Part shown: piece after piece, positions 52,419-53,913 of the stretch
Layout: each line of letters starts with the position of its first letter
How positions within the stretch are numbered: position 1 is the stretch's first letter
Assembly: GCF_056712565.1 (NCBI RefSeq)
Contig: NZ_CM160072.1
Length of the DNA stretch: 64,000 bases
Direction: 5' to 3' (one strand)
Position numbers and translations under genes: made by a program
The notes under the pieces: generated by a model
Seen by the model: the letters and a program-made list of their open reading frames with translations, nothing else
What the model was told of the DNA's origin: nothing
The model's database searches: none

Positions 52419-53913
52419 TCTTTCACACATTATTGCCGCAGCATTCAATGAACCGCTGCTTCTGGAGCCCGCCTATGCGCGGGTTTTCTTTTGCGCGCTG
52501 GGGCGCGAGATGGGGGCAGCAAGTCTTTCGGTACCACAACAGCAGGTACAGTTTGATGCTCCCGGAATGCTGGCTGAAACGGACGAGTACATGGCCGGAG
52601 GTAAACGACCGGCCCGTGTTTACCGGGTGGTGAACGGTATTGCTGTACTGCCGGTGACCGGCACGCTGGTGCACCGGCTGGGTGGTATGCGGCCATTTTC
52701 CGGAATGACAGGCTATGACGGCATTGTCGCCTGTCTTCAGCAGGCAATGGCGGATAGCCAGGTGCGGGGCGTACTGCTGGACATTGACAGTCCGGGCGGG
52801 CAGGCCGCCGGCGCGTTTGACTGCGCTGACATGATTTACCGCCTCCGTCAGCAGAAGCCGGTCTGGGCACTGTGCAATGACACGGCCTGTTCTGCAGCCA
52901 TGCTGCTGGCGTCGGCCTGCTCCCGACGGCTGGTTACCCAGACATCCCGTATCGGCTCCATTGGCGTGATGATGAGCCATGTCAGCTATGCCGGTCATCT
53001 GGCGCAGGCCGGTGTGGATATCACGCTGATTTACTCAGGGGCGCACAAGGTGGATGGCAATCAGTTTGAAGCGTTGCCGGCAGAGGTTCGCCAGGACATG
53101 CAGCAGCGGATTGATGCGGCGCGCCGGATGTTTGCCGAAAAAGTGGCGATGTATACCGGTCTGTCTGTTGATGCCGTCACGGGAACAGAGGCTGCCGTTT
53201 TTGAAGGTCAGTCCGGCATTGAGGCCGGGCTGGCGGATGAATTAATCAATGCGTCGGATGCCATCAGTGTGATGGCCACGGCGCTGAACAGTAATGTCAG
53301 AGGAGGCACTATGCCGCAATTAACTGCAACGGAAGCCGCCGCGCAGGAGAACCAGCGAGTGATGGGGATCCTGACATGCCAGGAAGCGAAAGGACGTGAA
53401 CAGCTTGCCACGATGCTGGCAGGACAACAGGGCATGAGCGTTGAACAGGCCCGGGCGATTCTGGCCGCGGCGGCACCGCAGCAGCCGGTGGCATCCACGC
53501 AGAGTGAAGCCGATCGCATTATGGTGTGTGAAGAAGCGAACGGTCGTGAACAACTGGCGGCAACGCTGGCGGCGATGCCGGAGATGACGGTGGAAAAAGC
53601 CCGCCCGATCCTGGCGGCTGCACCACTGGCGGATGCCGGACCCTCGCTTCGTGATCAGATCATGGCCCTGGATGAGGCAAAAGGGGCTGAGGCGCAGGCT
53701 GAACAGCTGGCTGCCTGCCCGGGAATGACAGTGGAGAGCGCCCGGGCTGTGCTGGCTGCGGGATCAGGTAAGGCAGAACCGGTCTCTGCATCCACAACCG
53801 CCATGTTTGAACATTTCATGGCGAACCATTCACCGGCAGCGGTACAGGGTGGCGTGGCACAGACGTCAGCAGACGGTGATGCGGACGTGAAAATGCTCAT
53901 GGCCATGCCATGA
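52408..53913 (+). CDS. Head protease/scaffold C (with nested Nu3), carrying an expanded triple internal repeat
   Basis: 501 aa; S49 protease region lambda gpC-like; ~40-aa motif repeated three times at 53360-53770. Confidence 0.85.
   Translation: MRRNLSHIIAAAFNEPLLLEPAYARVFFCALGREMGAASLSVPQQQVQFDAPGMLAETDEYMAGGKRPARVYRVVNGIAVLPVTGTLVHRLGGMRPFSGMTGYDGIVACLQQAMADSQVRGVLLDIDSPGGQAAGAFDCADMIYRLRQQKPVWALCNDTACSAAMLLASACSRRLVTQTSRIGSIGVMMSHVSYAGHLAQAGVDITLIYSGAHKVDGNQFEALPAEVRQDMQQRIDAARRMFAEKVAMYTGLSVDAVTGTEAAVFEGQSGIEAGLADELINASDAISVMATALNSNVRGGTMPQLTATEAAAQENQRVMGILTCQEAKGREQLATMLAGQQGMSVEQARAILAAAAPQQPVASTQSEADRIMVCEEANGREQLAATLAAMPEMTVEKARPILAAAPLADAGPSLRDQIMALDEAKGAEAQAEQLAACPGMTVESARAVLAAGSGKAEPVSASTTAMFEHFMANHSPAAVQGGVAQTSADGDADVKMLMAMP

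Follow-up and report, generated by a model that had tools for sequence, protein, structure and literature searches.

Prohead assembly in bacteriophage lambda requires the scaffold, which the protease degrades (PMC3224144, PMC10695390). The protease C and the scaffold Nu3 are both essential (PMC10695390), and interactions of Nu3 with itself, with E, with C and with B have been reported (Nu3-Nu3, Nu3-E, Nu3-C and Nu3-B; PMC3224144). In the lambda record J02459, nu3 is annotated from position 5132, that is, from Met239 of C, which gives a product of 201 aa behind a weak Shine-Dalgarno sequence. For phage 21, the record M81255 marks three repeat_region features within the scaffold gene 6, the 'Tri1 box', the 'Tri box' and the 'Tri3 box', with the note 'function unknown; putative'.

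Here we describe a gene pair of this kind in a 64,000-nt stretch of DNA (hereafter the window; contig NZ_CM160072.1 of assembly GCF_056712565.1), in which a triplicated segment had been predicted from the letters of the DNA. The triplication as such is already known, in the form of the Tri boxes of M81255; what is added is the distribution of the repeated module, a series of alleles with one to four copies, the predicted fold and evidence for selection at the protein level, and the contribution is a descriptive one. Its discovery value is small, the triplication being on record in M81255 and the allele being carried by roughly one in three complete E. coli genomes.

Gene organization and the nested scaffold start

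The prophage boundary seems to lie beside ompW: OmpW is encoded at 26050-26766 (+) and is followed by a lambda-type integrase gene at 26812-27942 (-). Upstream of the prophage the window consists of ordinary E. coli chromosome, with two tRNA-Tyr genes at 575-777 and adhE at 8756-11431. Near the integrase end the prophage carries an ORF of 631 aa (28809-30704, -) for which Pfam gives nothing at E <= 1e-5. Ahead of its late genes the prophage encodes an N6/N4 DNA methylase (41770-42819), directly followed by a tRNA gene cluster (42869-43118) for Met(CAT), Arg(TCG) and Arg(TCT); over the next ~5 kb (43.1-48.1 kb) all ORFs are shorter than 180 aa.

The head genes follow the order of the lambda operon: portal, protease/scaffold, D, E and FI. 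A gene for the terminase gpA (48669-50639) lies upstream of the portal gene (50826-52418), after which come the protease/scaffold gene (52408-53913, plus strand), a head decoration gene (53950-54297, Pfam HDPD), the major capsid gene (54355-55383, Phage_cap_E) and an FI-type gene (55387-55818). The protease/scaffold gene, a homologue of phage 21 gene 5 and of the lambda C type, was identified from the list of open reading frames and from its identity to phage 21 gp5; it begins with GTG and encodes, in 501 aa, a prohead protease fused to a scaffold. The N-terminal part contains the S49 peptidase domain of the lambda-type prohead proteases (aa 146-293, 52843-53286, plus strand; Pfam PF01343, E = 3.7e-35), and in a PDB sequence search aa 77-290 align with the SppA structures 3RST and 4KWB at E ~ 1e-16. 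Ser162 pairs with the Ser of the SppA 'AASGG' motif, and the general-base Lys is not placed by this pairwise alignment. The gene resembles lambda C/Nu3 in its nested in-frame architecture as well as in gene order; the protease parts are 61% identical, and the lambda neighbours B, D and E are 53-62% identical to their counterparts in the window.

The Shine-Dalgarno sequence GAGGAGG (53300-53306, plus strand), read from the sequence and annotated as the ribosome-binding site of gene 6 in both M81255 and OL657228, is followed after 4 nt by an in-frame ATG at 53311, which corresponds to the start of phage 21 gene 6. Translation from this putative start would yield a nested gene 6 homologue (53311-53913, plus strand), whose 200-aa putative product, a Nu3-type scaffold, keeps the C-terminus of the protease. 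The ATG aligns with Met309 of lambda C, itself situated behind a strong Shine-Dalgarno sequence; the scaffold start of phage 21 and of the window thus matches lambda Met309 (ATG 5342, preceded by AGGAGGG) instead of the annotated nu3 start. The best PHROG matches of the nested gene are phrog_53 (head maturation protease, in its C-terminal part, positions 342-583) and phrog_8399 (head scaffolding protein).

When phage records were searched by tblastn, gp5 of phage 21 (M81255) proved 99.4% identical to the window's protein at the amino-acid level over all 501 residues, in an end-to-end alignment. The two differ by two amino acids (A405S and L407Q), and the nested start, the ribosome-binding site and the positions of the repeats are alike; the gene in the window sits in an integrated prophage beside ompW, whereas the phage 21 records come from a phage isolate. 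In OL657228, a later complete phage 21 genome, gene 5 is identical to that of M81255 and is annotated as a capsid protease/scaffolding protein, with a nested scaffold from the ATG that corresponds to 53311. By identity and anatomy, the allele is almost certainly the phage 21 type of the lambdoid head protease/scaffold gene pair.

Three repeat units in the scaffold part

The protein contains one module, of ~42-45 aa, three times in tandem. Unit 1 (aa 314-358, ENQRVMGILTCQEAKGREQLATMLAGQQGMSVEQARAILAAAAPQ) is encoded at 53347-53481, unit 2 (aa 367-408, EADRIMVCEEANGREQLAATLAAMPEMTVEKARPILAAAPLA) at 53506-53631 and unit 3 (aa 414-455, LRDQIMALDEAKGAEAQAEQLAACPGMTVESARAVLAAGSGK) at 53647-53772, all on the plus strand, and hmmsearch scores them as domains of 77.8, 80.8 and 77.2 bits, respectively. 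The module consensus, ER-R----IL-C-EAKGRE-LA--LA---GMTV--AK-ILAAAP, thus has three matches of 77-81 bits each in this protein and a single one, of 83 bits, in lambda. The single-copy PHROG profiles phrog_8399, 8940 and 17040 each match the 501-aa protein in three stretches, and 15 columns are invariant across the three units and lambda's single unit. Unit 3 is the most diverged copy, with GAE in place of the conserved GRE.

Could such similarity be accidental? The region is Ala-rich and the BLAST low-complexity filter trims the ends of the units, as might be expected if the resemblance arose by chance from low complexity rich in Ala, Glu and Leu, or if the repeats were an artefact of assembly. 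Pairwise local BLOSUM62 scores among the units, however, are 85-103 against means of 24-26 for composition-preserving shuffles (z = 12-17), and in 500 shuffles the observed score was never attained; the independent PHROG profiles match three times; and the same three units occur in two independent phage 21 sequences as well as in 1869 complete genomes. Shuffles, independent sequences and independent profiles together refute chance, low complexity and assembly artefact, which we regard as next to impossible explanations.

The original prediction had placed three tandem diverged copies at 53360-53770, and the shuffles and hmmsearch bear this out, with limits of 53347-53772. It had also credited lambda C/Nu3 with a single segment, rightly so: lambda C (J02459) gives one match, aa 357-401, even at a domain E <= 10, and alignment with lambda shows only this one repeat. 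The expected extra length of ~60 aa relative to lambda C amounts to 62 aa (501 versus 439 aa), and the repeats do fall within the scaffold portion, all three lying downstream of the nested start at 53311. The 62 aa are a net figure, because the two extra units and their linkers are offset in part by the absence of a ~34-aa low-complexity Ser/Thr/Ala-rich stretch, which lambda has just after Met309 and the window's gene lacks.

A gapless mapping identifies the units with the repeats marked in phage 21: the Tri1 box corresponds to 53378-53481, in unit 1, the Tri box to 53518-53628, in unit 2, and the Tri3 box to 53659-53772, in unit 3, and in translation the boxes give the three units. Of 5426 complete E. 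coli genomes, 1869 contain the 603-bp gene 6 region at >= 90% identity, and 1864 of those 1869 contain it at full length. Annotated in phage 21 before and common in E. coli prophages, the triplication is therefore an ordinary feature. Between the window and phage 21 gene 5 there are 9 nt differences in 1503, and 8 of the 9 fall in a 52-bp patch (53616-53667) that runs from the last part of unit 2 through the linker into the beginning of unit 3 and yields both A405S and L407Q. Because M81255 and OL657228 are identical to each other, we read this as a small mosaic or recombination patch and not as sequencing error.

M81255 presents the Tri boxes as a DNA feature (the feature type is repeat_region), and OL657228 annotates two pattern-based 'CII binding sites' within gene 6 (53316-53329 and 53550-53563 of the window, minus strand), which would suit a reading of the boxes as cis-elements in DNA or RNA, either protein-binding sites or translational signals, with the protein similarity secondary. 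Against it, the units are only 57-66% identical to one another in DNA, with synonymous sites saturated and amino-acid positions conserved, and Tandem Repeats Finder reports no repeat in the DNA, because the copies are too diverged in nucleotides. There are 10 instances of the pattern TTGYN6TTGY in the window where chance alone predicts 15, a frequency that lends no support to CII-site function, and as a protein the module has been conserved across 552 diverged clusters. Given this divergence at the DNA level, the DNA-level reading, which we judge extremely improbable, was dropped. Three ORFs on the minus strand run across the repeats (53208-53519, 53320-53553 and 53655-53906), and because it is the plus-strand frame that is conserved as protein, they are taken as by-products of the GC/Ala-rich coding strand.

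Copy number among relatives

A search of 1.84 billion representative proteins with a 42-position profile of the unit, at E <= 0.001, found matches in 552 clusters (50% identity). When copies were recounted in the best 150 of the 552 clusters, 141 had one, six had two and three had three; among the full-length proteins (>= 380 aa) of these best 150, 53 of 54 were single-copy, and one, of 505 aa, had three. An S49 domain lies upstream of the module in all ten of the long proteins tested. The module constantly accompanies phage S49 proteases, at their C-terminal end, and nearly always as a single copy.

Repeat number among relatives, which the original prediction had pointed to as worth comparing, varies from one to four. 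Frequencies of the alleles were taken from complete E. coli genomes and the representative library; the homologue search, which returned mostly contig-edge fragments, was used only to spot variants. One copy is the state of lambda C. Two copies are found in rare in-frame derivatives of the phage 21 type, in which unit 2 is lost or units 1 and 2 are fused, and in one separate, distant lineage. Three copies are found in the phage 21 type, in Gifsy-1 of Salmonella (a gpC homologue of 498 aa) and in several lineages in which the scaffold region is only 45-60% identical. Four copies are found in an E. coli allele of 538 aa (for example WP_096934546.1 of STEC309), present in about 105-106 of the 5426 complete genomes. 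The S49 protease of the Gifsy-1 and STEC309 alleles is 70-74% identical to that of the window. In the excerpted STEC309 locus (NZ_CP041435.1), the four-copy gene occupies 598-2214, and the capsid protein encoded there is 83% identical to the window's.

E. coli WP3-W18-ESBL-08 (NZ_AP022003.1, excerpted locus 598-2046) has an allele of 482 aa in which an in-frame deletion of 19 aa, between short LAA repeats, has taken away helices 2-3 of unit 2; in its annotation the rest of the head operon is intact. Other two-unit derivatives are found in metagenomic and draft fragments (P0014, P0019 and P0022). In three entries of the representative library (P0116, P0117 and P0118) a lambda-type C protease/scaffold is fused to a tail protein (U, L or the N-terminus of the tape-measure protein); these entries are likely to be deletion derivatives, vector constructs or chimeras of assembly, not natural architectures.

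Evolution of the repeat units

In a neighbour-joining tree of the units, every first unit groups with lambda's single unit, and the members of this class have a first helix that is three residues longer (…RVMGIL…); units 2, 3 and 4 form a second class, in which positional orthology is looser. The units of the window are 45-59% identical to one another, and between them synonymous differences are saturated (pS = 0.67-0.74) at a pN of 0.21-0.35, which points to an old triplication in which each copy has been kept by selection on the protein. In the four-copy allele, by contrast, units 2-4 are mutually 79-87% identical and must therefore be the product of recent duplication or homogenisation. By these sequence comparisons, unit 1 is the orthologue of lambda's unit, and units 2 and 3 are old duplicates under protein-level purifying selection.

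Predicted structure

From a 92-sequence alignment of units, AF2 models the single unit as a three-helix bundle (helices 2-11, 20-27 and 34-43) with a short turn at the conserved EAKG, at a pLDDT of 92.1 and a pTM of 0.71; three independently predicted phage S49 proteases in BFVD superpose on this model with TM 0.87-0.90. In the model of the whole 200-aa gp6, built with 13 three-copy homologues, the helical units have a pLDDT of 70-84, and the linkers and part of the tail fall below 60; the model has no fixed inter-unit geometry, and at its pTM of 0.28 any such geometry is meaningless. We therefore picture the scaffold as follows: each unit is predicted to fold alone into a small three-helix bundle, and the units are predicted to be joined like beads on a string by short flexible linkers of Pro, Ala, Gln and Ser, ahead of a conserved tail.

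The tail (aa 456-501, 53773-53910, plus strand), delimited by alignment and AF2, is common to protease and scaffold; a helix is predicted at TTAMFEHFMANHSP, and the chain ends in VKMLMAMP. In the alignment of three-copy relatives the Nu3 module is followed by this tail, in which F-[ED]-x-[FY]-M and a terminal L-x-x-[MI]-P are conserved, and AF2 places tail helices at gp6 residues 160-173 and 192-196. The C-terminal tail of lambda is analogous (LDRLM...DLLNTPV). Medina et al. (2011, J Mol Biol 412:723) reportedly described lambda gpNu3 as 'intrinsically disordered', a label hard to square with a stably folded unit and a caveat for any model with folded domains.

Comparison with known structures and families yielded little for the scaffold. 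In the PDB sequence search, matches were confined to the protease part, to SppA, with no solved structure matching the scaffold part; no model of Pfam-A or NCBIfam matches the unit; Foldseek with the whole gp6 model against the PDB gave nothing better than E = 2; and comparison of the module with the solved C-terminal domain of P22 gp8 did not establish structural similarity.

Among the sub-threshold matches are two that would suit a nucleic-acid-binding unit, of helix-hairpin-helix-like form, through which scaffold or protease would touch DNA: a weak Pfam HHH match to aa 427-450, in unit 3 only (E = 0.097), and RuvA among the non-significant Foldseek matches to the gp6 model (E = 6.8). The loop 'PGMTVxxARxIL' also bears a superficial likeness to hxxhxGhGxxxAxxhh. 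Both matches are below threshold, however, the Pfam one at 13 bits against a cutoff of 24, and the Gly-h-Gly hairpin is not conserved in the alignment of units, which have G-M-T/S instead; moreover, scaffolds of lambda-type assembly act before DNA enters the procapsid. A helix-hairpin-helix DNA-binding motif is thus rejected, and we hold it to be very improbable.

Discussion

Why carry the same module three times? The best explanation overall, and in our view a likely one, is that the window carries a phage 21-type allele in which the three units serve as multivalent protein-binding modules of the scaffold. The binding mechanism taken by itself is a plausible proposal that we make tentatively. 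The unit would be the protein-protein interaction module of the Nu3-type scaffold, through which the scaffold would associate with itself and/or attach to the portal or to the inside of the capsid-protein shell. Because genes 5 and 6 share their frame and C-terminus, scaffold and protease alike would be brought into the procapsid by the same modules, together with the tail; once assembly is complete, the scaffold would be degraded by the protease, as in lambda. With three or four units per chain, binding would become multivalent, and avidity or stoichiometry would be altered with no new activity added. By analogy with many other scaffolds, the C-terminal tail, rather than the unit, could be the capsid-binding element.

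Lambda manages with one unit where the window's gene has three, and the major capsid proteins of lambda and phage 21 are 62% identical and of equal length, so that capsid geometry offers no obvious reason for the different valency. Alleles with a damaged or missing unit 2 occur in otherwise intact-looking head operons, and three copies may thus not be strictly required.

The main rival of multivalent binding is that the extra units serve chiefly as a spacer or tether, or are redundancy that is tolerated, and that only the C-terminal tail, perhaps together with unit 1, is functional. On this account, units 2 and 3 would set the distance from the protease domain or the body of the scaffold to a capsid-binding tail, in replacement of lambda's long low-complexity linker: lambda has ~47 aa rich in Ser, Thr and Ala between Met309 and its unit, compared with 12 aa in phage 21. 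Natural variants in which unit 2 is deleted, fused or gutted are also in keeping with a spacer, as are the loose positional orthology of units 2 and 3 across lineages and the loss of a near-invariant Arg from unit 3 (GRE to GAE). A mere spacer is harder to reconcile with the conservation of core and turn residues (I, EA-G-E, A, LA, M-V, AR and LAA) in all copies despite saturated synonymous sites, with the retention of three copies in >99% of the 1869 genomes and in lineages with a scaffold region only 45-60% identical, or with a four-copy allele in which all four units are intact. We consider the spacer reading unlikely, and multivalent binding remains the reading that we prefer.

If the units bind, their number may itself matter. 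The Nu3 module might be a discrete, autonomous three-helix domain and its copy number, from one to four, an evolvable setting of valency; this is a possibility that we offer with some doubt. If it is true, copy number would tune the contacts with capsid protein, portal or scaffold that each scaffold/protease chain makes, and would affect the fidelity of assembly or the compatibility between mosaic head modules. The natural alleles with one, two, three and four copies, which come with closely related capsid proteins, form a series in which scaffold valency can be tested in lambda-type procapsid assembly, and the same series may be useful for the engineering of lambda-based nanoparticles.

Several known systems resemble this arrangement. 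The herpesvirus genes UL26 and UL26.5 are nested genes for protease and scaffold with a common C-terminus, by which both products are targeted into the procapsid. In phage P22, the scaffold gp8 has a C-terminal helix-turn-helix domain that binds coat protein, an instance of binding mediated by small helical C-terminal elements. The window's gene pair would work like these two systems, with targeting through a common C-terminus and with helical C-terminal binding elements. At the level of the fold, the units compare with tandem three-helix-bundle binding modules, such as the domains of staphylococcal protein A and the affibodies, the GA module and UBA/CUE.
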